Assembly (NCBI GenBank): GCA_934130595.1
Contig: CAKOYF010000001.1
Span: 68,290-132,289, forward strand
DNA: 64,000 nt
Source of the DNA: an uncultured Clostridia bacterium
Lineage (GTDB): Bacteria > Bacillota > Clostridia > TANB77 > CAG-465
Direction of reading: 5' to 3'
This document shows, piece after piece, positions 23,205 through 63,753 of the stretch. The notes beneath the pieces are model-generated. The model worked only from the letters and a program-made list of their open reading frames with translations. It did no database searches and had not been told where the DNA came from. Both the position numbers and the translations under genes were made by a program. Every line of letters begins with the position of its first letter. Positions within the stretch are counted from its first letter, which is position 1.

Positions 23205-23219
23205 TTAAACTACCTCCTA

Positions 23220-24341: not shown

Positions 24342-24430
24342 CCGCGAAAAAATAAAAAAAAGGTCACGTTTTGAATTGAAATATAAATGTAATTTATATG
24401 ACACTTGTTTGTATTTTATTTAGTTGTATT

Positions 24431-41166: not shown

Positions 41167-41220
41167 ATTATAAAAATTATATCATTTTAGATTTTGTGTG
41201 TCAATTTTATTATAATAGAT

Positions 41221-45860: not shown

Positions 45861-47198
45861 CTATTCATTTCCTTTATATAAATTTGCAAATTTTGTATAT
45901 TTTCCAAGCCAAGCTAGCTCTACTGTTCCTGTCTCACCATGTCTGTTTTTAGCAACAATTACTTCTGCTACATTTTTCTTTTCTGTTTCTTTATCATAAT
46001 AATCTTCTCTATGTAAAAACATTACTATATCTGCGTCCTGCTCTATAGAACCAGATTCACGAAGATCACTTAACATTGGTCTATGATCTGCTCTTGCTTC
46101 AGTAGCACGGCTTAACTGTGATAATGCAATAACAGGTACATTAAGCTCTTTAGCAAGTATTTTAAGTCCTCTAGAAATTTCTGATATTTCTTGTTGTCTA
46201 GAACCATTTGCTGTTTTAGATTCCATTAACTGCAAATAGTCGATAATTATTAAGCCTATATTTTTCTCTAATTTAGCTTTTCTACATTTTGCTCTTATTT
46301 CAGATGGTGTAAGAACAGGTGTATCATCTATATATATTGGTACATCAGCTAATCTATTACTTGCATCAGCCATTTTTATCCAATCATCTTGTTCTAAATT
46401 TGCATTATTAATTTTCATGCTATCTATTTCGCTTTCACTACTTAGCATTCTTTTTACTAACTGTTCCTTTGACATTTCTAGGTTAAATATCATTACAGGA
46501 ACTTTATCATGCATAGCTACGTAAGACGCAATATTTAATACAAATGCAGATTTACCCATTGCAGGACGGGCTGCAACAATAATTAAATCTGAATCATTTA
46601 ATCCAGATATTTTTTCGTCTAAATCTATAAATCCAGATTCCATACCAGAAAGCTTTTCTTTGTTTTGATACATTTTTTCTATAGAGTCTAATGTATTAAC
46701 AAGTATCTCTTTCATTCCAGAATATGACTTACTATTTCTATTTTGAGCAAGATCAAATATTCCTTTTTCAGCTTGCTCAATTATAGCGTCTAACTCTTCT
46801 GTTTGTGCATATGAAACTTTCATTATATCACTGGTAACTTTTATTAGGTTTCTTGATGTAGCTTTTTGTTCAACGATTTCAACATATCTTTCAATGTTTG
46901 ATGTAGTAGGTACGTTATCTATTAATGTTGCTAAGTTTTGAGTTCCTCCAACTCTTTCTAGAGTTCCTCTTAACTTTAATTGTTCTGTTACAGTTATCAT
47001 GTCTATTTCTTTTCCGACAGAATAAATATCCATCATAGCTGCATATATTTCTTTATTATCTTCTCTATAAAAATCTTCTGGTTTTAAAACTTCTACTGCT
47101 GCTTGAACTGCATCTTTTGATACTAGCATAGAGCCTAAAACAGCTTGTTCTGCCAGAGTATCATTTGGTTGTACCTTATTTACTACTTCGTTTTCCAT
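45861..47198 (-). CDS. dnaB: Replicative DNA helicase (DnaB family; DnaC in Bacillus nomenclature).
   Basis: 445 aa, Walker A ARPAMGKS, RecA-like C-terminal domain. Conserved gdpP-rplI-dnaB order. Confidence 0.9.
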   Translation of the reverse strand: MENEVVNKVQPNDTLAEQAVLGSMLVSKDAVQAAVEVLKPEDFYREDNKEIYAAMMDIYSVGKEIDMITVTEQLKLRGTLERVGGTQNLATLIDNVPTTSNIERYVEIVEQKATSRNLIKVTSDIMKVSYAQTEELDAIIEQAEKGIFDLAQNRNSKSYSGMKEILVNTLDSIEKMYQNKEKLSGMESGFIDLDEKISGLNDSDLIIVAARPAMGKSAFVLNIASYVAMHDKVPVMIFNLEMSKEQLVKRMLSSESEIDSMKINNANLEQDDWIKMADASNRLADVPIYIDDTPVLTPSEIRAKCRKAKLEKNIGLIIIDYLQLMESKTANGSRQQEISEISRGLKILAKELNVPVIALSQLSRATEARADHRPMLSDLRESGSIEQDADIVMFLHREDYYDKETEKKNVAEVIVAKNRHGETGTVELAWLGKYTKFANLYKGNE

Positions 47199-47207
47199 TT
47201 GTTACAC

Positions 47208-47654
47208 CTACATTCCTACTACTGTTACCCTTAGTTTTGCAATTACTCCTTCATATAATTTTACGTTTACTGTATATGTTCCTAAATTTTTAATAGGATC
47301 ACTTATACTTATTTTTTTCTTATTTACCTCTATATTAAATTTCTCTTTTATTTTTTCTGAAATATCTTTTTCAGTTACACTACCATAAAGCTTACTTCCT
47401 TCGCCAACTTTATGTCTAAATTCTATTGATCCTCCTTCAATAATCTTTTTATCTTCATTAGCTTTTTGTAATTCTGTTTGCTTTTTGTACTTTTGAGCAC
47501 TAAGCTTTCCTTGTGCTTCATTTAAATTCTTGTTATCTGCTATTACAGCTAATTTTTTAGGTAATAAAAAATTTCTAGCATAGCCTTCACTAACTTCTAT
47601 TACTTGAAGTTTTTTTCCAACTCCCTTTATGTCCTTATTTAATACTACTTTCAT
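47208..47654 (-). CDS. rplI: 50S ribosomal protein L9.
   Basis: MKVVLNKDIKGVGKKLQVIEVSEGYARNFLLP. Confidence 0.95.
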   Translation of the reverse strand: MKVVLNKDIKGVGKKLQVIEVSEGYARNFLLPKKLAVIADNKNLNEAQGKLSAQKYKKQTELQKANEDKKIIEGGSIEFRHKVGEGSKLYGSVTEKDISEKIKEKFNIEVNKKKISISDPIKNLGTYTVNVKLYEGVIAKLRVTVVGM

Positions 47655-47679
47655 TTTTTACCTCCCATTAATTAATTTT

Positions 47680-49677
47680 TTATTTAGATAAATATTCATC
47701 AATACTTTCTAATAGTTTTTCTTTAGCCTCCTCAAGTGTTGAGCCTGCAATTTGTGCTCCAGCAAATGTTAGATGACCACCGCCACCAATTTTTTCAAGT
47801 ATTGCTTGAACATTTATATCTCCCATTGATCTTCCTGATATCATAACGATTCCATCAACCATACAAAGCACAAATGATGCTTGTATTCCAGATATTGAAA
47901 GCAATTCATCTGCAGCTTGAGCTACGATTATTGGCATATCTGGATGTGTCTCTGTTGTAACTGAAATTGCTATTTTATCATGGATAAATTCAGCATTTTT
48001 TACTATATTAACTTTTGCTACATAAGTTTCAAAATTGTTTTGGAATAATAATTTTATTTCAGCAACATCTATTCCAAATTTTTTCAAATATGCTGCAACT
48101 TCAAAAGTTCTAACTCCTGTTTTAAACATGAAGTTTTTAGTATCTACTACAAGTCCAGCATACATACATTCTGCTTCATTAGATGATATGCTGATTCCAT
48201 CCATGTACATAAGTAGTTCAACAACAAGCTCTGTTGCTGAAGAAGCATATATTTCATGATATGTAAGCACAGCATTGTCTATAAATTCAGGACCTCTTCT
48301 GTGGTGATCTATAACTGCTATACTTTCAAACTTATCTAAAAATTCTGGTTCTACAAGATAAGACTTTTTATGTGTATCTACTACGACTAGTAATGAATTA
48401 GTAACATCTTCGCTTTTTACATCTGCGTATGTTTTGAATACATCTTTGTAGTTTTCATCATATTTTATTTTTTCTATCAAAGCTTCAGTACTAGCATTAC
48501 ATTTAGCATCTACTACTATATTTACAGGTTTTCCTAAATATTTAGCTATTTTAACTATTCCTATTGCAGCACCAATACAATCTATGTCTGAATTTCTATG
48601 TCCCATAACATATACTTTTTCAGATTTTTCGATTAATTCTCTAATTGCTTGTGCCATTGCTCTTGCTTTTACTTTACTCATCTTTTCAAGACCTACATTA
48701 GATCCACCAAAGAAGTCGTATTTTTTATCTTTTTTTACAACAGCTTGATCTCCACCTCTTCCTAAGGCAATATCTAATGCTGATTGTCCTGCATTATATC
48801 TATCTTCTAGAGTTTCTTCTGAATATGAAATTCCCATAGAAATTGTAATTGGAAGTTTAGTAAGCTTAGTGACATTTCTTACTCTTTCAAGAATATCAAA
48901 AGACTCCTTTTCCATTTTTTCAACATATTTCTTTTCTATAAAAATAGCATATTTATCTTTGTCTAATCTAGCTAGCACACCTTTATTTTCTCTTGCCCAG
49001 CTTCTAATTTCTTTTGTTAAGACAGATGTAACTTCAACTTTTTGAATTTCATCAAGTCCTTGTAATGTTTCTTCATAGTTATCTATAAATAACATTCCTA
49101 TTGCTACTCGTGTATCTTCTAAACTTTGTTTTAAAGTGCTTTCATATGTTCTATCTACAAAAGACACTAACATGCAATCAAATTCTTCAAACTTAATTTG
49201 ATTGCACATTATATTATATACATCACCATTTCCTAGCTCTTCTAATAAGCTAGCTTTAGGATTTTTCTTTTTTAAAGATTCGAGTTTTAGTGTTGATTTT
49301 TCAATATAATCATCTGGTAGTATATGTTCAGCTGTGTTATTTTTCCAAATAACTTTTCCTTGCATACTAACTATAGCCATAGGGACATCTACTAAATCCA
49401 ATGACTCTTTAAAAATTAAATCAACATTTTTAGATAATTCATTCAATTTGAATTTTTTATCTTTTAACTCTTTAATACACATAATAATTGCAATAAGACA
49501 TAGTAGAAATATAGCGAATATGTCAATATAAATTGTAAGCGGTACTATTATAGATAGGAACGCTGCACATATAATTAATAAGGCAATTATTACAATTCTA
49601 AATGAAAAAGACTTAAAAAAACCAAACTTATTTCCTCTATCTTTATCCATAAAAACGAACTTCCTCTTTTCTTGCAT
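47680..49677 (-). CDS. gdpP: Cyclic-di-AMP phosphodiesterase GdpP (two TM helices, PAS, degenerate GGDEF, DHH/DHHA1).
   Basis: 665 aa with DHH motifs (HRNSDIDCIGAAIG, DHH) and a GGGH DHHA1 end. Position upstream of rplI-dnaB. Confidence 0.85.
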   Translation of the reverse strand: MQEKRKFVFMDKDRGNKFGFFKSFSFRIVIIALLIICAAFLSIIVPLTIYIDIFAIFLLCLIAIIMCIKELKDKKFKLNELSKNVDLIFKESLDLVDVPMAIVSMQGKVIWKNNTAEHILPDDYIEKSTLKLESLKKKNPKASLLEELGNGDVYNIMCNQIKFEEFDCMLVSFVDRTYESTLKQSLEDTRVAIGMLFIDNYEETLQGLDEIQKVEVTSVLTKEIRSWARENKGVLARLDKDKYAIFIEKKYVEKMEKESFDILERVRNVTKLTKLPITISMGISYSEETLEDRYNAGQSALDIALGRGGDQAVVKKDKKYDFFGGSNVGLEKMSKVKARAMAQAIRELIEKSEKVYVMGHRNSDIDCIGAAIGIVKIAKYLGKPVNIVVDAKCNASTEALIEKIKYDENYKDVFKTYADVKSEDVTNSLLVVVDTHKKSYLVEPEFLDKFESIAVIDHHRRGPEFIDNAVLTYHEIYASSATELVVELLMYMDGISISSNEAECMYAGLVVDTKNFMFKTGVRTFEVAAYLKKFGIDVAEIKLLFQNNFETYVAKVNIVKNAEFIHDKIAISVTTETHPDMPIIVAQAADELLSISGIQASFVLCMVDGIVMISGRSMGDINVQAILEKIGGGGHLTFAGAQIAGSTLEEAKEKLLESIDEYLSK

Positions 49678-49804
49678 TTTTTCCTATATTTTACTATCTT
49701 TGGTTTGAAATGTCAAGTAAACATAATATTTTAGTAACATTATTATGTGAATTTAAGCCAAAAAAAGAAAATATAATTTTTACATTATATTTTCTTTTCA
49801 ATTG

Positions 49805-50593
49805 TTATACAGCTACTTTTTCTGACAATCTAATTCTGTCTGCAATCATTGCTATAAATTCTGAATTAGTAGGCTTTCCTTTATTAGAATTTACAGTATA
49901 GCCAAATATTTTTTCATGCATTTCTATCTGTCCTCTATTCCAAGCAACTTCTATAGCATGTCTTATTGCTCTTTCAACTCTTGATGGAGTTGTAGAAAAC
50001 TTCTCAGATAATGTAGGATATAAAGATTTAGTAACTGAATTTAGTATTTCTTCGTTGTTTACTGCAAGTATTATTGCTTCTCTTATATATTGGTAACCTT
50101 TAATATGAGCAGGTACACCAACATCATGTATCATTTGAGTAACTCTAACTTCTAATGGTAAGCTTTTGTTACCATATGCAACCATGTATTCAGTTTTAAT
50201 TTCCTCTTCTTCCTTTAATAAATCTCTAACTCTATCTACAAGTGTTATCATATCAAAAGGTTTTACGACATAGTAAGTTGCACCTAAAGATATTGCTTTT
50301 TGTGTTACTTTTTCTTGTCCTATTGCAGACATTATAATAGTAACAGGTTTCTTTATTCCTACTTCATCTTTTAGATCTTCAAGGACAGATAAACCATCTT
50401 TTTCTGGCATAACTACATCTAGTAGCATAACATCAGGCTTAGACTGTTTTATAGCATCAATTACATTATTACCATCATATAATGGTTCTAGTGCAACCAT
50501 ATCTTTTTGAGAGTTTATGTACATATTTAATAATTTTACAAACTCTTTATTATCATCAACTATCATTACTTTTATTTTATCATTATTTTCCAT
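49805..50593 (-). CDS. spo0A: Sporulation master regulator Spo0A.
   Basis: Receiver domain (VDDN..D) plus the Spo0A-specific C-terminal domain (..KPTNSEFIAMIADRIRL). Confidence 0.95.
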   Translation of the reverse strand: MENNDKIKVMIVDDNKEFVKLLNMYINSQKDMVALEPLYDGNNVIDAIKQSKPDVMLLDVVMPEKDGLSVLEDLKDEVGIKKPVTIIMSAIGQEKVTQKAISLGATYYVVKPFDMITLVDRVRDLLKEEEEIKTEYMVAYGNKSLPLEVRVTQMIHDVGVPAHIKGYQYIREAIILAVNNEEILNSVTKSLYPTLSEKFSTTPSRVERAIRHAIEVAWNRGQIEMHEKIFGYTVNSNKGKPTNSEFIAMIADRIRLSEKVAV

Positions 50594-50635
50594 TTTACTT
50601 GCTCTCCTTTACAGCCTATCCTATAAAGCACCATT

Positions 50636-50664
50636 ATTATACAATTGTTTTAACAGAAAATCAA
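50636..50664 (-). promoter_or_regulatory. SigmaA-type spo0A promoter (TTGATT-17-TATAAT).
   Basis: -35 at 50659..50664 and -10 at 50636..50641 on the minus strand, about 40 nt upstream of the RBS AAAGGAGAG. Confidence 0.5.
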
Positions 50665-50684
50665 TATATTTATGTCTTTTTGAC

Positions 50685-50701
50685 TGTCAATTTTTGTCGA
50701 A
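50685..50701 (-). promoter_or_regulatory. Two adjacent Spo0A-box-like heptamers (TGTCAAT, TGTCGAA) just upstream of the spo0A promoter.
   Basis: Plus-strand TGTCAAT at 50685..50691 and TGTCGAA at 50695..50701; 0A-box consensus is TGTCGAA. Confidence 0.45.
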
Positions 50702-50780
50702 AAATGAATATTTCTCAATTTATATATAATTTTATATATTATATTTTTATAGTCATAATTACAAGTTATAATTCAAAATG

Positions 50781-50818
50781 CAAAAAACCCCTCCAAAGCT
50801 TGGCTGCTTTGGAAGGGT
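50781..50818 (-). terminator. Intrinsic terminator after the GNAT/trpS unit (GC-rich stem).
   Basis: CCCTTCCAAAGC-loop-GCTTTGGAGGGG followed on the minus strand by UUUUUUG. Atypically GC-rich for this genome. Confidence 0.7.
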
Positions 50819-50867
50819 GAATCTTTCTTATTTAACTAACCAAATTTGGTCAGATCGGATAGTAGTT

Positions 50868-51485
50868 TTATTTAGCTCTTACAACAATAACCTGTGCATC
50901 TCTTGCGTTTAAGCGCTTGAAAATGTTGGCAATCTTCTCATTTCTAAAAGTCTGTGCGATTTTCTCGTCCGGGTACGCTTCACGTACGATCAGATACTCA
51001 TCTGCGCTCTCGGTAAACTCGTTTTTCTTAACAAGTTCATAAATGCTTTCAGGAATGACATCATTGCTAACATTCGGATAGAATTCCTTAGAATCAATTG
51101 CAAATCTTGTCAGAGTTTCAAACATTCTAGGATTATGAGTTCTAGCAGAAATGAAAGTTAAATTATCACTTCCAAAAACTGTCTGAATCATCATAAGGCT
51201 AAGTCCTTTGCCCTGTGCTCTCGGATGTAATACAACTCCATGTAAATAGAGAGTACTAATATCTCTGAGCTTTGCAAAAACGGAAAAACCATCGAGGGAA
51301 CCGTCTTCATCGAACGCCAAACAAATCGTATAATCTTCGTTTCCAAACAGATGATCATATACATCCTTGTAATCTGTCGGAAAATGCGCTGCATTTGCAA
51401 CCTCTAAGCACTGCTTAGCGATTTCTTCCTTGTTTTCAAAGTCTGCAGGAACACCAAAACAAATTCGCCATCCATACCACAACAT
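50868..51485 (-). CDS. GNAT-family N-acetyltransferase, 205 aa, substrate unknown.
   Basis: ATG with an AAGGAGGTA RBS. GNAT acetyl-CoA motif HPRAQGKGLS. GC clearly higher than flanking DNA. Confidence 0.6.
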   Translation of the reverse strand: MLWYGWRICFGVPADFENKEEIAKQCLEVANAAHFPTDYKDVYDHLFGNEDYTICLAFDEDGSLDGFSVFAKLRDISTLYLHGVVLHPRAQGKGLSLMMIQTVFGSDNLTFISARTHNPRMFETLTRFAIDSKEFYPNVSNDVIPESIYELVKKNEFTESADEYLIVREAYPDEKIAQTFRNEKIANIFKRLNARDAQVIVVRAK

Positions 51486-51547
51486 AACTATACCTCCTTG
51501 TAATAATAATGTTAGGGTCTTTGTTACCTACTGAGTTGGCAGCTTGC

Positions 51548-52549
51548 TTATACTTTACTGACAAATCCGACAGCATCATATACTTGTGCAAGCTTGGTTT
51601 TTGCGGTTTCGTGTGCATTTCTAGCTCCTTTCGCATAGATTTCTCTGAGGAAGTCATCATACTCTTTAGAGTCTAATTCATGGTATCTCTCCTGAATCTT
51701 ACCTAAAGTGTCTGCGACAACTTCACCAACAGCTACCTTAAAAGTCCCGTATCCGACACCTTCAAATTCTTTTTCTACTTCTGCCACACTCTTGTGTGTA
51801 ATAGAAGAGTAAATATCAATGAGGTTACGAATACCAGGCTGCTCCTCTGAATATCTTACAATATTCATAGAATCTGTTTTAGCTTTTTTGAACTTTCTGA
51901 TAATGGTATCCTTTGAATCTAATAAGGAAACAAATCCGTTCGGATTCGGATCCGATTTAGACATTTTCTTCAAAGGATCTTGCAGACTCATAATTCTTGC
52001 GCCTGTTTCAGAGATGAAAGCATCAGGAATCTTAAAGATCTCACGTTTATAGGTAGAATTAAATCTCCTAGCAAGATCTCTTGTAATTTCAAGATGCTGT
52101 CTTTGATCTTCTCCAACAGGTACATAGTCCGGGTCATACAAAAGAATATCAGCTGCCATAAGAACAGGATAATCAAACAGGCCAACGCCAACGTTTTTCT
52201 GTTTCTGAGATTTGTCCTTAAACTGTGTCATACGGCTGAGTTCTCCCATATAAGTAGAACAGTTCAAAATCCAAGCCAGTTCGGCATGCTCATGTACATG
52301 AGACTGCACAAAGATAGTGTTAATATTTGGATCAAGTCCACATGCAATGTACTGTATAACAGCTTTCTTTGTGTTTTCACGTAATGCTACCGGGTCCTGT
52401 GGTACTGTGATTGAGTGTAAATCAGCAATAAAGAATTTGCATTCATATTCATGCTGAATGTTAACCCAATTCTTCAAGGCACCTAAATAGTTGCCAAGAG
52501 TGAGTACGCCTGAAGGTTGAATTCCGCTTAAGATGGTCTTTTTTTCCAT
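51548..52549 (-). CDS. trpS: Tryptophan--tRNA ligase.
   Basis: Class-I HIGH-region equivalent (SGIQPSGVLTLGNY) and KMSKS. Start trimmed to MEKKTIL with a GAAAGGAG RBS. GC about 40% versus under 30% elsewhere in the window. Confidence 0.85.
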   Translation of the reverse strand: MEKKTILSGIQPSGVLTLGNYLGALKNWVNIQHEYECKFFIADLHSITVPQDPVALRENTKKAVIQYIACGLDPNINTIFVQSHVHEHAELAWILNCSTYMGELSRMTQFKDKSQKQKNVGVGLFDYPVLMAADILLYDPDYVPVGEDQRQHLEITRDLARRFNSTYKREIFKIPDAFISETGARIMSLQDPLKKMSKSDPNPNGFVSLLDSKDTIIRKFKKAKTDSMNIVRYSEEQPGIRNLIDIYSSITHKSVAEVEKEFEGVGYGTFKVAVGEVVADTLGKIQERYHELDSKEYDDFLREIYAKGARNAHETAKTKLAQVYDAVGFVSKV

Positions 52550-52628
52550 GCTAAACGCTCCTTTCAATGGTGGTTATTTAGTTGTCAATGTGCGCCAAAC
52601 TACTTCAACTGAAATAGTTTACGGAGCA

Positions 52629-52658
52629 ATTATACATGCCGACACTCATTGTGTCAAT
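52629..52658 (-). promoter_or_regulatory. Consensus sigmaA promoter for trpS (TTGACA-17-TATAAT), short leader.
   Basis: -35 at 52653..52658 and -10 at 52629..52634 on the minus strand. Leader of about 55 nt with no T-box elements. Confidence 0.6.
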
Positions 52659-52669
52659 AGCAAACTCAA

Positions 52670-52715
52670 AAAAAGATGAAAAAAGTAGCTATTTTGTTGT
52701 AAATAGCTACTTTTT
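52670..52715 (-). terminator. Intrinsic terminator of the M20 peptidase gene.
   Basis: AGTAGCTATTT/AAATAGCTACT stem, with T-runs on both sides. Confidence 0.6.
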
Positions 52716-52728
52716 AGGCTTATTTTGT

Positions 52729-53760
52729 CTATTTTATACATACTTCATTAATTATATCTTTATATTGCTCTACTAATTTATTTAAGCTTTGAATTGTTAT
52801 ATGTTCGTCTACTTCATGGGCTGTTACAGGCCCTGCTCCTAAAATCATTCTGTTTCCTTTTAACATACTTGCTTCTGTAAAGTAATTTGCTGTATCATGT
52901 GTATTGATAAAATCAATATCGTTATACCAAGCATTAATTTGTTGTATAATATCTGCTTCACAATCATATTTTAAAGCAAGTTCTTCTACTTTATCTTTTA
53001 ATATTTTTATATGTTCATCTTTTGCAATTCTAAAATCTAAAGTTGCTTTACAATATGCTGATACTGAATTTATTGCACTTCCTCCATTTATTACTCCAAC
53101 ATTCATAGTTGTGTATGGAATTTCAAATTTCTCATTTATATCTTGCTTTATATTTTTATTGTAAAATTCATCTAATTCGTAAAGAAACTTTATACATGCT
53201 AGATTTGCACTCTTTCCTTTGGCAGGATTACTTGAATGAACTTTAATTCCTTTAAAGCTTAAATTATATGCTAGTAAACCTTTACAACCAGTAACAGTTA
53301 CATTATTTGTAGGTTCTCCAACTAATATATATTCAGGAAACTTCTCGTTTGTATCTAGAACTTCTCTTATTCCTTCAAAGTTTTGCTCTTCTGAGTAAGT
53401 AAAGTATGCTTTTATACCATGTTTTAATTTAGACAAATCAATTTCACTAACTGCTTTAATAAATGCTGCAATTCCGCTTTTCATATCACAGCTTCCTAGT
53501 CCATATAATTCTTCACCTTTTTGAGTTAACTCAAAAGGATTAGTTTTCCATCCATCTATGTATTCAACCGTATCTGTATGTCCAACAAATCCAAATTTAG
53601 GATTTTCACCATAAGACATAATCAAGTATTTTCCCTTACGCTCAGTTTTAAAATTTAACTTCTTCATTTCACTTTCAATATAATTTATTATTTTATCATT
53701 TTCTTTATCTTTAATTGTATTAAAAGATACTAGTTCTCTTAAAATATTTACGACTTCCAT
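52729..53760 (-). CDS. M20-family metallopeptidase/deacylase (ArgE/DapE-like).
   Basis: 343 aa with GHTDTV and ..GSCDMKSG.. metal-binding motifs. AT-rich like the host genome. Confidence 0.7.
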   Translation of the reverse strand: MEVVNILRELVSFNTIKDKENDKIINYIESEMKKLNFKTERKGKYLIMSYGENPKFGFVGHTDTVEYIDGWKTNPFELTQKGEELYGLGSCDMKSGIAAFIKAVSEIDLSKLKHGIKAYFTYSEEQNFEGIREVLDTNEKFPEYILVGEPTNNVTVTGCKGLLAYNLSFKGIKVHSSNPAKGKSANLACIKFLYELDEFYNKNIKQDINEKFEIPYTTMNVGVINGGSAINSVSAYCKATLDFRIAKDEHIKILKDKVEELALKYDCEADIIQQINAWYNDIDFINTHDTANYFTEASMLKGNRMILGAGPVTAHEVDEHITIQSLNKLVEQYKDIINEVCIK

Positions 53761-53907
53761 TATTATCTCCCTCGTTCATTTTTTCGTTATTGTATTTTAC
53801 AATATATCCAAAAATATGTCAACTATAACTTTATATTTATTATATATAGTTTATATACAATAATAAAAGAAGAGAGCATGCATAACATGCTCTCCTCGTT
53901 GACATCA

Positions 53908-54453
53908 CTATAAGTTAGATTTAAAAGATTTAAGATTAGAATGCAGTACCGTATTAAACTCCACTGCCTCGCCGTCTTCTCCTCTTTCAATCAATTTAGA
54001 AGTGATAGTATCTGTAGAAATAACACACTCAATAGAGGAATCTTCTGAAACATAAAAAACTACAATAACGTAATCCGTTAAAGAAGAACGGTTATGCACA
54101 GACAGCACCTGGATTTTCGTATCAGGCTCAATAGCCTTCAAGATCTCGGTACACTTACTATCTAAGAATTCGTCGTTTACAATGTCTGCTATTTTCTTTA
54201 ACAGCTCTCTTCCTTTACAATCAAGTTTCTCATCATTAAAAGATAATGCAATAATATATCTGTTGCTAGTACTACTGCTTTTGTTTCTTTCAATGAAGTT
54301 ATTAATTTTCAGTTTCATAAATCTGCTGCTTAATGCTTCACGGTTTTCAACATACGTGCTCACATCAAAGCATAAATCCGTTTTTGTTGCAAAAAAATCA
54401 ATAATAGAATAGATAAACCGAGTATACGTTGCCTTTGCTGCTTTTTTCCCCAT
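53908..54453 (-). CDS. Hypothetical protein, 181 aa, higher GC than its surroundings.
   Basis: ORF track. No recognised motifs. Confidence 0.35.
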   Translation of the reverse strand: MGKKAAKATYTRFIYSIIDFFATKTDLCFDVSTYVENREALSSRFMKLKINNFIERNKSSSTSNRYIIALSFNDEKLDCKGRELLKKIADIVNDEFLDSKCTEILKAIEPDTKIQVLSVHNRSSLTDYVIVVFYVSEDSSIECVISTDTITSKLIERGEDGEAVEFNTVLHSNLKSFKSNL

Positions 54454-54750
54454 AACTATACCTCCTAATTATAAGTGATAAAAAAAAGAATTGTTACAAA
54501 GTACAAATTTGTACTTTTGCTAAGCATACCAAACTAGTATAGTTCAATATTTCAGCTTTTTTTACGGCTGTTATTTTAACATTTTATTAGCAGATATTCA
54601 ATATTTTATATGCATTTATTTGATTTTTTCATGATTTTTTAAATTTCCAAAAATTTCCTGTATTATTTTTTCATAGTTACACAAATTAATAGTGTAAAGT
54701 GTAACAAACATAAAACACTTTAATACAAAAAAAACTGGAGGTGAATTTAA

Positions 54751-54966
54751 ATGGCTTCAACAAACAGCAAAATGACAAATAAACAAGCTAAAGCTGCTTT
54801 AGACAAATTCAAATATGAAGTAGCTAACGAAATCGGAGTTAACCTAAAACAAGGTTATAACGGTGACTTAACTTCTAAACAAGCTGGTTCTATAGGTGGT
54901 GAAATGGTTAAAAGATTAGTTGCTAATGCTGCTAACCAAATGCAATCACAACAACCTAACCAATAA
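54751..54966 (+). CDS. Alpha/beta-type small acid-soluble spore protein.
   Basis: MASTNSKMTNKQAKAALDKFKYEVANEIGV...SKQAGSIGGEMVKRLV signature. RBS GGAGGTGA. Confidence 0.9.
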   Translation: MASTNSKMTNKQAKAALDKFKYEVANEIGVNLKQGYNGDLTSKQAGSIGGEMVKRLVANAANQMQSQQPNQ

Positions 54967-54996
54967 TTTAGGTATAATTAGTGTTAGAAAGTTAAA

Positions 54997-55028
54997 AAGA
55001 TGGTGAGTTAATTCACCATCTTTTTTAT
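54997..55028 (+). terminator. Intrinsic terminator of the SASP gene. It overlaps the 3' end of the convergent gene and is likely bidirectional.
   Basis: AAGATGGTGA/TCACCATCTT stem followed by TTTTTTAT. Confidence 0.65.
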
Positions 55029-55390
55029 TTACCTATTTCTAAATCTACTGAATTTCCATGTAAGTCTGTACCTTTTCCAGTTTTGTAATCTAGATTATAT
55101 CTTTCTACATAGTCTGCATTTTCATCTGTAGAATCATATATTTCTATAATCATAACATCTTTATTATCTGAATATAATATAATATCACTTGCTGTATTTC
55201 CAGTTTCTTTTTCATAATATTTATTTGCACAATCTTTCCATTCTTGATTAGTATGCTCTACTATTTTTTCTTCTTGTTTTACTTCCTCTTTATTATCTAC
55301 TGCTTTATTTTTATTATTAATAACAACAAAAACAATTGATATTATTATTAAAACTAAAATTAAAAATACAATCAATCTTTTTTTATTCAT
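55025..55390 (-). CDS. Small secreted or membrane-anchored protein, 121 aa.
   Basis: N-terminal signal/anchor MNKKRLIVFLILVLIIISIVFVV. Confidence 0.4.
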   Translation of the reverse strand: MNKKRLIVFLILVLIIISIVFVVINNKNKAVDNKEEVKQEEKIVEHTNQEWKDCANKYYEKETGNTASDIILYSDNKDVMIIEIYDSTDENADYVERYNLDYKTGKGTDLHGNSVDLEIGK

Positions 55391-55455
55391 ATTAGCCTCC
55401 TATTAAATAACATTATCTACTATATAATATCAAAAAAAAACCAAAAAGTCTATTA

Positions 55456-57558
55456 TTATTCAAGATATTTACAGATATTATTAGTATATATTATTTCTAA
55501 CTTGTGCAAGGCTCTAGTCATGGCTACATATAATAATTTCATATCTAATAAGCTATCACTATTATAAACCGAATCATCAGCATCAGCTATTATTACAACG
55601 TCAAATTCTAATCCTTTAGAAAGATAAGATGTTAATATACATACACCACCGTCATATTTTTCTTGATCTTTATATATTATTTCTGATTCTATATTATTTG
55701 ATTTAAGTGTCTTATGTAGTTTAGCCATATTTTCCTGATTTTTATATATTATTGCAATTGATTTAAAACCATCATTTAAGTATTTTTTTACTTGATTTGC
55801 TATATATTCTTCTTTGTTACTATTAATATTACTTTTAATAACTGGTCCTGCACTACGTATAACAGGTTGTGCCATTCCAAGATTAATTGCATGAGATATT
55901 TTATTTGCTTCATTCATTATCTCCGTAGATGTTCTGTATGATTTTTTAAGATTAAGTAAATTAGCATCTGGAAGTACATTTTCTATTACCTCATTCCAAT
56001 TTGTTATAGCTCTATATGCATATATTCCTTGAGCCATATCACCAAATATAGAAAAATGAGCATTAGGAAAAAGCTTTCTTAAAATATAAAATCCAAACAC
56101 TCCAAAATCTTGAGCCTCATCTATAACAACACTTTTTATCCTCTTATATTCTTCGTTTCCAAATAAATATAATTTAATATACATCAGTGGAGCAATATCT
56201 TCATTTTCAATGATGTTTTTTTCTAGTGATTTTAAAGTATATTCTTTTATTTTTTGATCATCTGTAGTTTTTATAAATTTCTTGTAAATATTTAATACTT
56301 TAACATTACTTATACTTAAGAACTTCTTTATATCCTTTTCAAATCCGTTTGTTGTTAGCTCTTTAAGCATTGCTATTTCTTTTTTAGCAACTTTCTTTTT
56401 CATCTCAATTGTAGTTTGTTCTTTTTCTTTTTCAAACATTAATGTTTTTATTCTATTATATATATTCTCATCATTTTTTATTCTATTTGCAATTACTTTA
56501 GCAGTCATCTCAAGCTTTTGTGCAACACACTCACCTTGTATTTGATTATATACATCTAATATTTCATATTTAGACAAAATTAATATATCATTTAACACTA
56601 GTCCAGTATCTAATATTAAGCGCTTTTCAAGGTTATTTAGATATTTTTCTAACAACTTCATATAATTTAAGCTAGATTTAAATTTTAAATCTGAATTTTC
56701 TTTATTTCCATTTATTATATCGTTTAATTTCTTAGTTGAATCCTCAAATTTTAACTTTTCAACAGTATAATTAGAAGCCAATTCCTCAAATGTAAGTTGA
56801 ATAGCATTGCCAGCATCTAAATCTGGCAAAACATTTGATATATAATTAATAAAAAACTTATTTGGTCCTATAACCATAAATTGATTCGGTTTATATTTAT
56901 CCGCATTATTGTACATTAGATATGCAATTCTATGTAAAGCAACTGTTGTCTTTCCAGAACCAGCTACTCCTTGAACAATTATATCTTTTTCAATACTTTC
57001 TCTAATTATACTATTTTGCTCACTTTGAATTGACGCTACTATATTTTTAAGCCTACTATCTGCATTTGCACCTAAATATGGTTTTAATAGCTCATCATCT
57101 GATACTGAATCTACATCAAAGATTTCCTTTACTTCACCTTTATTTATAATGATTTGTCTTTTTAATGTAAGGTTTCCGTTAATCCTTCCTTGAGGTGCAT
57201 TATATCCGACTTTTCCTAAGTTACTATCATAGTACAATGAAGCCACAGGAGCTCTCCAATCAGTAACAACAACTTTTCCATCTAAATCAATTACCCCAAT
57301 TTTTCCTATATAAAGTTTATCTTTATATTTTCTGCTATCTTCTTTAAAATCTATTCTTGCCAAATATGGTTTTTCTTTTATTCTATTTATATTAGCAATT
57401 TTAGTAGCTGTTGAAGACATCAGATTTTCTAGTAGCACAGGATTGCTTCTGTACTTGCTTGGTAAAGTTTTTAATATTTCTTCTTCACCATTTTTTATAT
57501 AGCCTAACTCGTCAATTGTTTTTACTAGCTTTTGCTTTTCATATTCTAAATCTTCCAT
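55456..57558 (-). CDS. helD: HelD-like (UvrD/helicase IV family) DNA helicase, 700 aa.
   Basis: HelD-type N-terminal region (..VVTDWRAPVASLYY..) and Walker A GVAGSGKTT. UvrD-like C-terminal region. Confidence 0.7.
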   Translation of the reverse strand: MEDLEYEKQKLVKTIDELGYIKNGEEEILKTLPSKYRSNPVLLENLMSSTATKIANINRIKEKPYLARIDFKEDSRKYKDKLYIGKIGVIDLDGKVVVTDWRAPVASLYYDSNLGKVGYNAPQGRINGNLTLKRQIIINKGEVKEIFDVDSVSDDELLKPYLGANADSRLKNIVASIQSEQNSIIRESIEKDIIVQGVAGSGKTTVALHRIAYLMYNNADKYKPNQFMVIGPNKFFINYISNVLPDLDAGNAIQLTFEELASNYTVEKLKFEDSTKKLNDIINGNKENSDLKFKSSLNYMKLLEKYLNNLEKRLILDTGLVLNDILILSKYEILDVYNQIQGECVAQKLEMTAKVIANRIKNDENIYNRIKTLMFEKEKEQTTIEMKKKVAKKEIAMLKELTTNGFEKDIKKFLSISNVKVLNIYKKFIKTTDDQKIKEYTLKSLEKNIIENEDIAPLMYIKLYLFGNEEYKRIKSVVIDEAQDFGVFGFYILRKLFPNAHFSIFGDMAQGIYAYRAITNWNEVIENVLPDANLLNLKKSYRTSTEIMNEANKISHAINLGMAQPVIRSAGPVIKSNINSNKEEYIANQVKKYLNDGFKSIAIIYKNQENMAKLHKTLKSNNIESEIIYKDQEKYDGGVCILTSYLSKGLEFDVVIIADADDSVYNSDSLLDMKLLYVAMTRALHKLEIIYTNNICKYLE

Positions 57559-57671
57559 AATACCCTCCTTTTTTTGAAATGCTTTTTTATTATAACCTAA
57601 TATTATGTAATATGCAATAAAAGAATAAAAAAAGATGATACTAAATGTATCACCCTTTTAACTAAATAATA

Positions 57672-58985
57672 TTATCCTAAAAATCCTGAATAATTTCTGC
57701 TTACCATTTGTGTCTCTATTGTATTTAGTACTTCTAATCCAACACTTACTAAGATAAGTATTGAGTTACCACTAAATGATATAGATTGATTTGTGAAAGC
57801 CTGTAAAACTATTGGTAGAATTGCTATAGCAGCTAAGAATAAAGATCCTGCAGCTGTAATTTTTAATAATACATTGTTAATGTAATCTGATGTATTTTTA
57901 CCAGCTCTTATACCTGGAATAAATCCACCATTTTTCTTTAAATTATTAGCAATTTCTACTGGATTTACTATAAACATAGTATAAACAAATGTAAATAGTA
58001 TGATTAGTAACATGTATATTACTGCATATCCTACTAAGTAACCCCATGGACTACTTGAAGATGCTGTAAATAAAGTATAAACACCTTTCCAAAATCCTGT
58101 TAAAGAATTTACATCAGTTACTAGGCTTATAATTATACTTGGGAATGACATAAATGACATTGCAAATATAAGTGGCATAACGCCAGCCATAGCTAATTTT
58201 ATTGGAATGTGTGTACTTTGACCACCATACATTTTTCTTCCAACTACTCTTTTTGCATAATTTACAGGAATTCTACGTTCAGCTTTTTGAACAAATACTA
58301 CTGCAGCAACTACAGCTATTAATCCAACTATAAATGCAGCAAATATTAATATTCCAGTAAATCCGCTTCCAGCAATATTAGCAAATGCTTTTATTGTTGA
58401 TGGTAAACCAGCAACTATACCAAAGAAAACTATCATTGATATACCGTTACCGATACCATGTTCAGTAATTTTATCTCCTAGCCATGTTAGTAATGAAGTA
58501 CCAGCCATTAAAGAAATTATAAATAGGAAAAATCCTAGATATTTTCCAGCACCATATGTTAATGGTGTTAAAAGATATGCTTTGTATGTGAAGTATAATC
58601 CTAAACCTTCAATAAATGCAAACGCAATTGTTAAATATTTAGTATACTTACTTAATTTCTTTCTTCCGCTTTCTCCTTCTTTGGCTAAACGCTCTAAACT
58701 TGGTATTACAAATTGTAATAAGTTTAAAACGATAGATGCTGTAATGTATGGTCCTATTGTCATTGAAAAAATAGATAATCTGCTAAATGCTCCACCAGAG
58801 ATTAGGTTGATCATTGCTGATAATCCATTTGTTCCAGCACCTAATTGTTGATTAATTGTTATTTTATCTAGACCAGGAATTGTAATAAAAGTTCCTACCC
58901 TAAATAAAAGTAATATTAGAAAAGTAAATAATAACTTTTTTCTAACATCTTTGACTGAGAATATGCTTTTAATATCTTCTAACAT
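57672..58985 (-). CDS. secY: Preprotein translocase subunit SecY.
   Basis: 437 aa, 10 TM helices. N-terminus ..KLLFTFLILLLFRVGTFITIPG. Confidence 0.95.
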   Translation of the reverse strand: MLEDIKSIFSVKDVRKKLLFTFLILLLFRVGTFITIPGLDKITINQQLGAGTNGLSAMINLISGGAFSRLSIFSMTIGPYITASIVLNLLQFVIPSLERLAKEGESGRKKLSKYTKYLTIAFAFIEGLGLYFTYKAYLLTPLTYGAGKYLGFFLFIISLMAGTSLLTWLGDKITEHGIGNGISMIVFFGIVAGLPSTIKAFANIAGSGFTGILIFAAFIVGLIAVVAAVVFVQKAERRIPVNYAKRVVGRKMYGGQSTHIPIKLAMAGVMPLIFAMSFMSFPSIIISLVTDVNSLTGFWKGVYTLFTASSSSPWGYLVGYAVIYMLLIILFTFVYTMFIVNPVEIANNLKKNGGFIPGIRAGKNTSDYINNVLLKITAAGSLFLAAIAILPIVLQAFTNQSISFSGNSILILVSVGLEVLNTIETQMVSRNYSGFLG

Positions 58986-58986
58986 A

Positions 58987-59427
58987 TTACTTCACCTCAG
59001 TCTTTCCACCTACAGCTTGTATTTTTTCTTCAGCAGTTTTTGAAAATTTATTAGCTACAACAGTAAGTTTTTTAGTTAGAGTTCCGTTTCCTAGAACTTT
59101 AACTCCATCTAATTCATTTTTAATTATACCTTCAGACATTAATAGTTTGCTATCAACAACTGTACCATTGTCGAATTTTTCTAAATCACTTAAGTTAACT
59201 ATTGCGTATTCAGTTGCAAAGTGATTTTTAAATCCTCTTTTAGGAATTCTTCTATATAAAGGTGTTTGTCCACCTTCAAATCCTCTTCTAATGCTACCGC
59301 CTGTTCTAGCTTTTTGACCTTTGTGTCCTTTTCCAGCTGTTTTTCCAAGACCACTTCCAATACCTCTACCTACTCTTTTAGAGGTAGTTGTAGCACCGTA
59401 TGCTGGAGCTAATTCGTGTATCTTCAT
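58987..59427 (-). CDS. rplO: 50S ribosomal protein L15.
   Basis: [30 protein letters not shown]. Confidence 0.95.
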
Positions 59428-59472
59428 TCAAGCTTCCTCCTCTCTTATTAATTACTAGTAATCATTATATCA

Positions 59473-59982
59473 TTATTTAAGTATTTCTTCTACTGTTTTT
59501 CCTCTAAGTTTAGCAACTTCTTCTGGTGTTCTCATAGCTTTTAATGCTTTTATTGTTGCATAAACAACATTTCTGCTGTTACGAGAACCAAGAGTTTTAG
59601 CTGTTACGTTTTTAACACCTGCAAGTTCTAGAACTGGTCTTACTGCACCACCTGCAATGATACCTGTACCTTCAACTGCTGGTTTTAATATTACTTTAGA
59701 TGAACCAAAGTTTGTAGTGTACTCATGAGGTAAAGTACCATTTACTAATGATACTTCAACTAAGTTTTTCTTAGCGTCATCAGTAGCTTTTTTGATAGCT
59801 TCTGGAACTTCTGCAGATTTACCTGTACCAACGCCTACGTGACCATTTTCGTCACCAACAACTACTAATACACTAAATCTAAAAGTTCTACCACCTTTAA
59901 CAACTTTAGCTACTCTGCTTACATTAACAACTTTTTCTTTTAATTCAGTTTTAGTTTCTGCCATTTTAGTTTCTCCTTTCAT
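59473..59982 (-). CDS. rpsE: 30S ribosomal protein S5.
   Basis: ..[24 protein letters not shown].. Confidence 0.95.
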
Positions 59983-60341
59983 TAGAATTCTAATCCAGCT
60001 TCTCTAGCTGCATCTGCTAATGCTTTAACTTTTCCATGGTATAAGTAACCATTTCTATCAAAGACAACAGTGTTAATTTTTGCTTTTTTAGCACGTTCTG
60101 CGATTAATTTTCCAACTTCTGTAGCTGCTTCAACGTTAGATGCTTTAGCTTTAACTTCTTTATCTAATGTTGATGCTGAGCAGATAGTAGTTTGTTTTTC
60201 ATCGTCTATTACTTGTGCATATATGTTATTTAGACTTTTGAAAACACAAAGTCTTGGTCTCATAGAAGTACCTTGAACTTTAGTTCTAACTCTTTTTTGT
60301 CTAATAGTTCTTGTAACTTTTCTATCTGTCTTATTTATCAT
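59982..60341 (-). CDS. rplR: 50S ribosomal protein L18.
   Basis: 119 aa. ..[18 protein letters not shown].. Confidence 0.95.
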
Positions 60342-60369
60342 CTTAAGACTCCCTCCTTAACTTCTAAGA

Positions 60370-60906
60370 TTATTTCTTACCGCCAGCTTTTCCTTCTTTT
60401 CTTATTATTCTTTCGCCAGCGTATTTAATTCCTTTACCTTTATATGGTTCAGGTTGTCTCTTTTCTCTAATATTAGCAGCAACTTGACCAACTAATTGTT
60501 TGTCAATACCTTTTACTACTATTGTATTTGGATTTGGTACATCTATAGTTATTCCTTCTATTTCTTCAATTTCAACAGGATGAGAATAACCTAAAGTTAG
60601 TACTAATTTATTACCTTGTTTTTGTGCTCTATATCCTATTCCGTTTACTTCTAATGTTTTTTCAAAACCATTAGTTACACCTACGATCATGTTATGAATT
60701 AAAGTTCTTGTTAATCCATGAATATTTCCGTGCATTTCATTGTCTATAGTTACTTTAATTTCATTTTCTTCTTGTGCTATATTAACGCAAGGTAAGAATT
60801 CTTGTGTTAAAGTTCCTTTTGGTCCTTTAACTGTAACTGTGTTTCCTTCGATTTTTACTTCAACACCAGCTGGTATTGCTATAGGACTTTTACCTATTCT
60901 TGACAT
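60370..60906 (-). CDS. rplF: 50S ribosomal protein L6.
   Basis: [17 protein letters not shown]. Confidence 0.95.
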
Positions 60907-60940
60907 TTGGTATACCCTCCTTTATTTTTTAAATTCTATA

Positions 60941-61333
60941 TTACCAAATATATGCTAAAACTTCGCCACCAACATTTTCTTTTCTAGCAGCTTTATCTGT
61001 CATAATTCCTTTAGATGTAGAAATAATTGCTATACCTAATCCGTTTAAAACTCTAGGTAAGTCTTCTACATTTGCATATATTCTTAGACCTGGTTTACTA
61101 ATTCTTTTTAAACCTTGTAAAACTTTTACATTGTTTTGATATTTTAATGTAATTCTTAAAGTTTTGTGTGAATCTTCAATTATATCTGCTGACTCAACGA
61201 AACCTTCAGATACTAAAATATTTGCTATTGCTTCTTTTTCCTTAGAATAAGGAACGTCAACTGTTGCATGTCTTTGAGCGTTAGCATTTCTTATTCTAGT
61301 TAACATGTCTGCAATTGGATCTGTTGTATTCAT
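60941..61333 (-). CDS. rpsH: 30S ribosomal protein S8.
   Basis: [17 protein letters not shown]. Confidence 0.95.
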
Positions 61334-61352
61334 TGCCTTTATTCCTCCTTTT

Positions 61353-61538
61353 CTACCAGCTTGCTTTTTTTACACCTGGTATATCTCCTTGATATGCTAA
61401 TTTTCTAAAGCATAAACGGCATATTCCATATTTTCTCATGTAAGAATGTGGTCTTCCACATATTTTACATCTGTTATAATATCTTGTGCTAAATTTTGGT
61501 TCTCTTTGTTGTTTAGCTATCATAGATTTTTTTGCCAT
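61353..61538 (-). CDS. rpsZ: 30S ribosomal protein S14 type Z (zinc-binding).
   Basis: 61 aa with the CKICGRPHS...CRLC zinc ribbon. Confidence 0.95.
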
Positions 61539-61550
61539 TTCAAGTCCTCC

Positions 61551-62090
61551 CTACTTTTCAGCGAATGGTAAGCCTAATAATTTTAATAATTCATAAGCTT
61601 CTTCATCTGTTTTTGCAGTTGTTACAAATACGATGTCCATTCCTCTTACTTTATCTATTTTATCATATTCTATTTCAGGGAAAATAATTTGTTCTTTTAC
61701 TCCCATGTTATAGTTTCCTTTTCCATCGAAAGAGTGTGGATTAACTCCTTTAAAATCTCTTACACGTGGAAGTGCTACGTTAAAGAATTTAGTAGCGAAA
61801 TCGTACATTTTTGCATTTCTTAATGTTACTTTGCATCCAATATTCATACCTTCTCTTAATTTGAAAGCAGCTATTGATTTTTTAGCTTTAGTAACGATTG
61901 GTTTTTGTCCAGAAATCATTTCTAGTTCTCCCATAGCTACGTCTAAAGCTTTAGAGTTATCTTTAACTTCTGAAACACCCATGTTTATAACTATTTTATC
62001 TAGCTTTGGTACTTGCATTATTGATTTGTATCCAAATTTTTCCATTAATGCAGGAACAACTTCAGTTGTATATTTTTCTTTAAGGTTCAT
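61551..62090 (-). CDS. rplE: 50S ribosomal protein L5.
   Basis: [21 protein letters not shown]. Confidence 0.95.
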
Positions 62091-62108
62091 TAACTTTTTC
62101 CCTCCTTA

Positions 62109-62429
62109 CTACTTCATTTCGTTACAGCATTTGCAAAATCTTGTTTTAGTACCGTCTTCATTAACTTTAACTCCAAGTCTTACACCTTTTTCGCATTTAT
62201 CACAATAAAAGCTTACTTTAGATGCATAAATTGGACTTTCAGATTTAACGATTCCAGATTCTTGACCTTGCTTTCTAGCTTTAACATGTTTTGTTCTAAC
62301 GTTTATATCTTTAACAATTACTTTACCAGATTTTTTATCTATGTCTAGTATTGTTCCTTTTTTTCCTTTTTCAGCTCCTGTATTTACAATTACAGTATCA
62401 CCTTTTTTTAATTTCATTTTTGTTAACAC
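62109..62429 (-). CDS. rplX: 50S ribosomal protein L24.
   Basis: KKGDTVIVNTGAEKGKKG. Unusual C-terminal CDKCEK..CKCC zinc-ribbon-like extension. Confidence 0.9.
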   Translation of the reverse strand: MLTKMKLKKGDTVIVNTGAEKGKKGTILDIDKKSGKVIVKDINVRTKHVKARKQGQESGIVKSESPIYASKVSFYCDKCEKGVRLGVKVNEDGTKTRFCKCCNEMK

Positions 62430-62449
62430 TTTAATTTCACCTCCGTATA

Positions 62450-62818
62450 TTAAAGAACTTCAGGTGCTAGAGATAGTATTTTCATGTATTCACCATCTCT
62501 TAGTTCTCTTGCTACTGGTCCAAAAATACGTGTTCCTCTTGGTGTTTTATCATCTTTGATTAAAACAGCAGCGTTTTCATCAAATCTAATATAAGAACCA
62601 TCTTCACGTCTAAGACCTCTTTTACTTCTAACAATTACAGCTTTAACAACATCGCCTTTTTTAACTCCAGAGTTAGGTGCTGCTTTTTTTACAGATGCAA
62701 CGATAACATCACCAATGTTACCCCATTTTCTGTAAGAACCACCAAGAACTCTAATACACATTAATTCTTTAGCTCCAGTGTTGTCTGCAACTTTTAATAA
62801 TGTTTGTTGTTGTATCAT
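62450..62818 (-). CDS. rplN: 50S ribosomal protein L14.
   Basis: [27 protein letters not shown]. Confidence 0.95.
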
Positions 62819-62847
62819 GGATTAGTCCTCCCTTCAAATATATTTTA

Positions 62848-63751: not shown

Positions 63752-63753
63752 TT

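Follow-up and report, generated by a model that had tools for sequence, protein, structure and literature searches.

The window analyzed here, 64,000 nt from an uncultured Clostridia bacterium (contig CAKOYF010000001.1), carries a two-gene operon in which trpS, encoding tryptophanyl-tRNA synthetase (TrpRS), is paired with the gene of a GNAT acetyltransferase. The gene order at the locus is SASP, hyp181, M20 deacylase, trpS, GNAT, spo0A, gdpP, rplI, and dnaB; every gene from hyp181 to dnaB is on the minus strand and the SASP gene alone (54751-54966) is annotated on the plus strand. The trpS gene (51548-52549, minus strand; 333 amino acids, assigned with Pfam and NCBIfam) and the GNAT gene (50868-51485, minus strand; 205 amino acids, assigned with Pfam and an AlphaFold2 [AF2] fold) are separated by a 62-nt spacer (51486-51547, minus strand; GC 0.387) that holds the GNAT ribosome-binding site (RBS). 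Because this spacer has no terminator-like site, the two genes are predicted to be cotranscribed; DNA homology to other copies of the operon is continuous through it. The operon is organized as an autonomous transcription unit, in which two open reading frames (ORFs) are preceded by a consensus promoter and a short structured leader and followed by a strong terminator.

The sigma-70-type promoter (52657-52629, minus strand) has TTGACA at 52657-52652, a 17-nt spacer, and TATAAT at 52634-52629, and it matches the consensus at 12 of 12 positions, as had been claimed in an earlier note made from the sequence alone. All five aligned copies of the operon share the −35 hexamer, a TA(T/A)AAT −10 hexamer, and the distance between the two. 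Three exact TTGACA-17-TATAAT sites occur in the window versus 0.05 expected, indicating that the operon promoter is real yet not unique and that native genes of the organism use such promoters. The two further sites are at 4295-4323 and 41176-41204 (minus strand).

With the transcription start placed from the −10 hexamer and translation starting at the ATG at 52549, which is preceded by the RBS GAAAGGAG (52565-52558, minus strand), the 5′ leader (52550-52622, minus strand) is ~70 nt long rather than ~55 nt as first estimated. Folding predicts a hairpin at the 5′ end of the leader (~52622-52596, minus strand) in all eight operon copies folded. Its 10 pairs are mostly invariant or changed on one side, with one compensatory pair, and the stability of the window copy alone is unexceptional (z = −0.85). 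The box GCACATTGACAAC (52593-52581, minus strand) shows little or no change in seven of eight copies and is lost in one (L105; retrieved loci are given L numbers), and the RBS is conserved across copies. A riboswitch was considered and rejected given the short hairpin, little covariation, and unexceptional stability; the leader reads better as a putative 5′ stabilizer or operator.

An Rfam search of the whole window at the gathering threshold, and of 50500-54900 at E ≤ 1, finds no family, the T-box included. The promoter is of a constitutive-type consensus, and neither an attenuator nor a T-box accompanies it. Relative to T-box-regulated trpS of Firmicutes (RF00230), the window has the same gene in a Firmicute, without the T-box and with a leader of only ~70 nt. 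The scan bears out the earlier observation that the leader lacks a T-box. As a marker of foreignness, however, this absence fails, because native trpS genes of relatives also have no T-box. Among nine related loci, a T-box is found in L014 only, before an aminotransferase gene and a second trpS. The T-box leader in that locus (8400-8640; 96 bits) precedes the gene of a class I/II aminotransferase and this second trpS, which has a third-codon-position GC content (GC3) of 0.23 and sits 3 kb from a native trpS (GC3 0.13). L014 represents another two-trpS lineage, with different regulation.

At the other end of the operon, the 3′ untranslated part (50781-50867, minus strand) has an intrinsic terminator followed by a T-run. 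The 13-bp stem (50818-50787) is GC rich, as previously claimed, with seven G-C pairs, and is predicted to be highly stable (−30.9 kcal/mol; z = −4.9). A terminator hairpin is found at the same place in all operon copies and the stem sequences differ. The terminator ends ~100 nt upstream of the promoter region of spo0A (49805-50593, minus strand) and insulates this downstream regulatory region, whose conservation extends to strains that lack the operon as well as those that have it.

The operon differs from the remainder of the window in base composition. GC content of 50781-52660 is 38.6% versus 28.1% for the rest of the window (z = 4.8 relative to all nonoverlapping 1880-nt windows, whose maximum is 0.329), close to the ~40% versus <30% estimated earlier. 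The edges are sharp, with GC rising at ~50800 and falling at ~52680 in a 200-nt profile. Codon usage, which had been suggested as a check, also sets the two genes apart: GC3 is 0.33 for trpS and 0.34 for the GNAT gene and 0.07-0.19 for other ORFs of at least 120 amino acids, with the sole exception of hyp181 (0.32). The noncoding parts of the operon (promoter and leader, 62-nt spacer, and 3′ untranslated part) have 39-40% GC versus 21-25% in adjoining intergenic DNA, and GC3 in the operon is elevated for nearly all amino acids. The excess is therefore not an effect of codon choice. Likewise, host ribosomal-protein genes have a GC3 of 0.09-0.14, and codon bias linked to expression thus does not account for elevated GC3 in this window. 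The composition of the operon is foreign in coding and noncoding parts.

Presence of the operon varies within the species. An exact match to the TrpRS is present in 53 blocks of the assembly collection, from which 24 contigs, each the longest of its block, were read. These 24 contigs come from many independent gut metagenomes (Hadza and others), and the places that were grouped or shown share gene order and junctions. In strains at 97.8-100% identity to the window, the operon is present and colinear. In two loci of the same species from other samples (L126 and L127), the order is SASP-M20-spo0A and flanks are 96.3-97.4% identical to the window, with two segments missing: 53842-54610, a variable segment around hyp181, and 50888-52699, which includes the promoter, trpS, and the GNAT gene except for approximately its last six codons. 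In a blastn comparison to L126, the window matches at 97.4% over 50887-47000 and at 89% over 53841-52700, with no match between. At the junction, L126 and L127 hold a decayed copy of the last ~6 GNAT codons and the operon terminator, with mostly G/C-to-A/T changes. The simplest reading of these sequences is that the operon was deleted in L126 and L127. Whatever the direction of the event, cells of the same species live without the trpS of the operon and must still charge tRNA-Trp, so another trpS must exist in them. Among abundant TrpRS clusters, P0410 (581 contigs, with one of 1.82 Mb) was the best candidate for the second trpS of the host and was rejected, as it belongs to another species with its own spo0A locus. 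In a sister species (L116-L121), with Spo0A at least 90% identical and flanking DNA 76-82% identical, SASP is directly followed by spo0A without a trace of the four genes.

The earlier view of a two-gene insertion is consistent with composition and with variation among strains, but the variable region is larger and hyp181 varies too. The hyp181 gene (53908-54453, minus strand; 181 amino acids, GC3 0.32) is without a function by homology and has no match in Pfam, NCBIfam, PADLOC, or PHROG. The gene of the M20 deacylase (ArgE/DapE-type; 52729-53760, minus strand; GC3 0.14) has its own promoter and terminator. Its segment (52700-53841) shows the 89% identity between window and L126, where both flanks are at 96-97%, and within-species polymorphism density is 4-5% in the M20 and hyp181 segments versus 2.7% in host DNA, suggesting allelic replacement by recombination.

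The same operon is found in at least six other low-GC gut Clostridia, at ~75% nucleotide and 83% amino acid identity. DNA homology of ~75% extends from the leader to the GNAT stop codon in L009, L010, L089, L094, L103, L122, and L125. All hosts of the operon seen so far are AT rich, with GC3 of 0.10-0.20 in neighbor genes versus 0.26-0.43 in operon genes. Contexts differ. In L009, L010, L094, L103, and L122, the operon follows trpB and a TrpB-like gene; in L089, L104, and L125, it is directly behind a native trpS (GC3 0.10), and in L089 and L104 a tRNA-Trp gene lies between the native trpS and the operon. The genomes of L089, L104, and L125 support the earlier suggestion of an auxiliary copy, which for the species of the window is suggested by L126. 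Genes of mobile elements are located just downstream of the GNAT gene in several contexts: an IS200/605 Y1 transposase with a relaxase, MobC, and TnpV; a VirD4-like coupling protein with conjugation genes; and TraG, TrbL, and a sortase, the last two being different sets of conjugation genes. A large serine recombinase ORF (14583-16364) is also present 3 kb downstream of the operon in L010. This recombinase carries a C-terminal SpoIIID domain and looks like a sporulation-gene intervening element in spoIIID. By TrpRS similarity, the pairs are L010-L094 and L089-L103; by GNAT similarity, they are L094-L103 and L089-L010. This incongruence indicates recombination among lineages.

The wider neighborhood of the operon in relatives is centered on tryptophan, with a hyp181 homolog, tRNA-Trp(CCA), an EamA transporter, TrpB, a TrpB-like protein, trpS, and GNAT. 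Homologs of hyp181 (35-49% amino acid identity) adjoin tRNA-Trp and trpS in L010, L013, L014, and L105, and hyp181 may be a further member of an exchangeable Trp locus. tRNA-Trp(CCA) is linked to the trpS neighborhood in eight related loci (L089, 9656-9730; L104, 4595-4669; L010, 6711-6785 and 6868-6942; L013, 7044-7116; L014, 4804-4876; L094, 105-179; L105, 2927-3001; and L113, 5553-5626). The tRNA-Trp isodecoders are of two types, A1-U72 and G1.U72, and both are present in L010. In L094, a 261-amino acid ORF with a weak PemK/MazF-like toxin domain (1338-2123) is located between the EamA gene and trpB of the Trp locus.

We conclude that the unit is probably a laterally acquired, strain-variable operon of two genes, trpS and GNAT. 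The earlier suggestion that trpS was horizontally acquired gains support from presence and absence within the species, the empty site in the sister species, the other contexts, and neighboring mobile elements. The operon would supply a TrpRS free of T-box control as an extra copy beside a trpS elsewhere in the genome. Exchange among related gut Clostridia could proceed through recombination or through carriage as cargo beside mobile elements, and the source may be an unsampled reservoir of roughly 38-42% GC. The GNAT would share the physiological context of TrpRS; N-acetylation of a small amine or amino-acid analog is its most plausible activity.

Several findings weigh against lateral acquisition. 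The window has no recombinase, integrase, or transposase and no target-site duplication, and border repeats show only weak AT-rich similarity; unlike insertion sequences (IS), transposons, integrative and conjugative elements, and integron cassettes, the operon in the window is without its own recombinase, terminal repeats, or target-site duplication. The GNAT family has no match in plasmid, phage, and IMG/VR collections. Within the 64-kb window there is no other trpS and no tRNA gene, hence no tRNA-Trp. Among the contexts retrieved, all from AT-rich hosts, there is no donor with a matching GC content of ~40%. Furthermore, synonymous divergence (dS) of operon copies between hosts is ~0.6-2, similar to that of flanking native genes (trpB, 1.57; EamA, 1.67; TrpB-like, 0.94), and simple amelioration should have erased the excess in GC had the copies codiverged in place. 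Either transfers were repeated or GC is maintained by something; the simplest account would be that the operon was imported repeatedly from a reservoir yet to be sampled. Within the species, the ratio of GC-to-AT to AT-to-GC changes is 20:13 in the operon versus 90:91 in host DNA, where 1.6:1 is expected for a 38.6% GC stretch decaying under host mutational bias, but the power of this test is low: 20:13 does not differ significantly from 1:1 and the counts are too small to exclude maintenance of GC. That the GC excess persists in all of these AT-rich hosts is not accounted for by models of amelioration.

The phylogeny of TrpRS bears on the origin of the operon. In a neighbor-joining tree of 85 TrpRSs from retrieved loci, constructed without bootstrap, operon-type TrpRSs form one clade with the native enzyme of L089 as sister, and both are within those of low-GC Clostridia (L011-L014). 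TrpRSs of Acutalibacteraceae and Oscillospiraceae are ~55-62% identical. An origin outside Clostridia, for which a TrpRS phylogeny had been named as the check, is thus not supported. The earlier note held that host-like composition together with a TrpRS grouping with other Clostridia would speak against its proposal; the second half is what the tree recovers.

The partner of TrpRS belongs to a small family. The GNAT scores 21.9 bits to Pfam Acetyltransf_1, barely above the cut-off of 20.7, but its AF2 model has a pLDDT of 92.4. A Foldseek search yields 399 GNAT-type PDB matches at E ≤ 0.001, with TM ~0.5 to many unrelated generic GNATs. The family has 76 homologs among 5.8 billion protein clusters, with invariant motifs FPTDY, HG..L.P..QG.G, THNPR, AYPDEK, and DAQ; the acetyl-CoA motif QGKGLS (Q/R-x-x-G-x-G/A type) is within a conserved block. 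On the basis of profile and model, the 205-amino acid product is a GNAT-fold acetyltransferase of a small, uncharacterized subfamily, with predicted activity. Comparisons of sequence, profile, and fold to known acetyltransferases recover no specific similarity, only the generic core: E = 0.048 to MccE, core only, comparably weak to SpeG, YncA, and RimI, and E ≥ 0.005 to solved structures. Searches with PADLOC and PHROGs also yield nothing. Like small-molecule GNATs (arylalkylamine or serotonin acetyltransferases such as SPSE_0802, MccE/RimL, YncA/MnaT, and phosphinothricin acetyltransferases), the family has the GNAT fold and QGKGLS, and the decarboxylase and deacylase context of its distant homologs resembles amine acetylation pathways. 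It differs in the extra motifs FPTDY, THNPR, AYPDEK, and DAQ and in size (205 versus ~140-190 amino acids).

Distant members of the GNAT family (38-43% identity) are of native composition, with GC3 of 0.09-0.16 except in L106 (0.24). They adjoin M20-family genes, whose products are deacylases of the ArgE/DapE type in L107-L114 and resemble the dipeptidase PepD in L106, and they adjoin trpS in L113 (GNAT-M20-trpS) and L115 (GNAT-trpS). In L107, L109, L112, and L113, they are directly downstream of group II pyridoxal phosphate (PLP) decarboxylases, which are closest to histidine decarboxylase (~227 bits, below the cut-off of 305). The GNAT-M20 and GNAT-trpS pairings, as well as the linkage to PLP decarboxylases, are old in uncultured gut Clostridia. 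The M20 gene in the window is an old neighbor of the GNAT family and outside the foreign unit, given its host-like composition, its presence in L126, and the M20 genes that adjoin distant GNATs; the M20-trpS-GNAT arrangement of the window recreates an old association with foreign alleles. The same four loci have apparent operons of a histidine-decarboxylase-like PLP decarboxylase, GNAT, and an ArgE/DapE-type M20, followed by trpS or by genes of NTP_transf_2, a TrpD-like phosphoribosyltransferase, and RibD_C. These decarboxylase-GNAT-M20 operons look like an undescribed pathway of amine or amino-acid modification.

A physiological role that is possible within, and does not contradict, lateral acquisition of the operon is tolerance to gut small molecules directed at TrpRS, such as tryptamine and related indole amines. 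The GNAT would N-acetylate the inhibitor and the extra, T-box-less trpS would raise the dose of the target. As an explanation in its own right, we consider this unlikely. Linkage of GNAT and trpS is conserved across clades and gene orders, distant GNATs are directly downstream of PLP decarboxylases and beside M20 deacylases, and the neighborhood in relatives is Trp centered, all of which are consistent with such a role. So are reports that tryptamine is a competitive inhibitor of TrpRS (PMC12607914), that tryptamine, made by gut bacteria at millimolar levels, is inhibitory to certain gut species but not to others, for reasons left unexplained (PMC12993505), and that bacterial GNATs that acetylate tryptamine exist (PMC9992809). 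However, the decarboxylases are histidine-decarboxylase-like, at ~227 bits versus a cut-off of 305, and the amine could thus be histamine or another; the GNAT shares only its generic core with arylalkylamine acetyltransferases; and gene linkage alone gives no substrate. Quite improbable is an extended form, in which trpS-GNAT is a two-component tolerance module against competitive TrpRS inhibitors of gut neighbors (tryptamine or an indole or imidazole amine) and, in relatives, is part of an exchangeable "tryptophan-decoding" locus (hyp181, tRNA-Trp, EamA, TrpB, TrpB-like, trpS, GNAT) that circulates among AT-rich gut Clostridia at ~10 points of GC above every host. If the GNAT does act on an inhibitor of TrpRS such as tryptamine, this would explain differences in tryptamine sensitivity among gut species and would represent a new kind of tolerance cassette that joins a target to a modifier.

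It is also improbable that trpS-GNAT is a native housekeeping pair with GC kept by selection or local bias and with absences that reflect secondary loss compensated elsewhere. The nesting of its TrpRS among those of low-GC Clostridia agrees with a native pair, as does the old adjacency of GNAT, M20, and trpS at native composition in L107-L115. The GC3 of 0.26-0.43 kept by the operon in several hosts despite dS near that of native neighbors also points in this direction. Yet noncoding parts are equally enriched in GC, and ribosomal-protein GC3 of 0.09-0.14 argues against an effect of expression. Moreover, the site is empty in the sister species and the operon was lost in a strain of the same species, genomic contexts vary among hosts, similarities of trpS and GNAT are incongruent, and the polymorphism spectrum fits decay.

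The sequence of TrpRS bears on a further explanation, in which the operon encodes an auxiliary, antibiotic-insensitive enzyme (indolmycin or chuangxinmycin type) that spread as a resistance gene, like mupA or TrpRS1 of Streptomyces. TrpRS scores 364.9 bits to NCBIfam TIGR00233 (cut-off 176.75) over residues 3-329 of 333, matches Pfam PF00579 (tRNA-synt_1b) at 4.9e-77, and matches its best solved relatives at 3e-120. In Bs numbering, by alignment to the Geobacillus enzyme (sequence verified against 1i6k), it retains class I motifs (the TIGN-type HIGH motif and KMSKS) and residues of the Trp pocket, including the Trp-specificity residues M129 and D132, with G17, N18, K192-S196 (KMSKS), M129, D132, I133, V141, V143, and Q147. 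Residues of Geobacillus TrpRS that bind Trp, indolmycin, or chuangxinmycin include the equivalent of V40, H43, M129, D132, I133, V141, V143, and Q147 (PMC8814664). Operon-type and native-type TrpRSs do not differ at positions 5, 40, 43, 129, 132, 133, 141, 143, and 147 or in KMSKS; only three substitutions are clade specific and all are outside the pocket. Judged by its residues, the product of trpS is a catalytically canonical bacterial TrpRS. Resistance to indolmycin of the H43N type was considered and rejected because the His is conserved.

Some features are nevertheless those expected of a resistance gene: a second copy beside the native trpS in L089, L104, and L125, a strong promoter of its own, mobile elements adjoining the operon in other genomes, and precedents for resistant duplicates of aminoacyl-tRNA synthetases (aaRSs; PMC9437257). 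Known duplicates, such as TrpRS1 of S. coelicolor, IleRS2/mupA, and albomycin-resistant SerRS2, resemble the operon copy in being laterally mobile and separately expressed and in coexisting with a housekeeping gene, an arrangement seen for the operon in L089, L104, and L125 and suggested for the species of the window by L126. But they are described as ~30% identical to the housekeeping copy, with altered inhibitor binding or inducible expression (PMC9437257), whereas the operon TrpRS is 77-81% identical to native paralogs, has an identical pocket, and is behind a constitutive-looking promoter. Because the pocket residues are all the same, insensitivity, as proposed in the earlier note, is unsupported. 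There is also no biosynthetic cluster nearby, with M20, hyp181, spo0A, and SASP as neighbors. We regard spread as a resistance gene as very unlikely. An assembly or binning artifact, for instance a chimeric contig, merits practically no credence: one 3.6-kb copy (L009) sits in a "Lactobacillus johnsonii" metagenome-assembled genome and is clearly a binning error, but the exact protein is found in 53 blocks, the 24 contigs read derive from a large number of independent samples, and junctions are the same at the places that were grouped or shown.

Relative to housekeeping TrpRS (TIGR00233, PF00579), the operon enzyme is similar in full length, class I motifs, and Trp-pocket residues of the Geobacillus and Escherichia coli enzymes. 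It differs in its foreign-composition, strain-variable operon, own consensus promoter, GNAT partner, and presence as a second copy beside a native trpS in three related genomes. It is well established that aaRS genes are duplicated and laterally transferred, and the core finding is therefore unsurprising. New are a conserved, transferred operon in which the partner of a canonical TrpRS comes from a GNAT family that is very small and undescribed; the old association, in uncultured Clostridia of the gut, of this GNAT with trpS, M20 deacylases, and PLP decarboxylases; and a strain-variable unit that adjoins the gene of the master sporulation regulator.

Elsewhere in the window, gene order is unusually compact at 47000-64000. 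A ribosomal-protein operon with secY (57672-58985) is directly followed by a UvrD-like helicase gene and a small ORF; adk, map, infA, and rpoA, which usually follow secY, are not seen in the window. The order continues with SASP, the variable locus, spo0A, gdpP, rplI, dnaB, tilS, ftsH, rpsB, tsf, and pyrH. A long run of minus-strand genes at 7758-25620 may be a pilus or secretion cluster, as several of its small proteins begin with hydrophobic segments resembling those of pilins (for example, 14099-14563, 14575-14952, 16565-17032, and 17172-17660).

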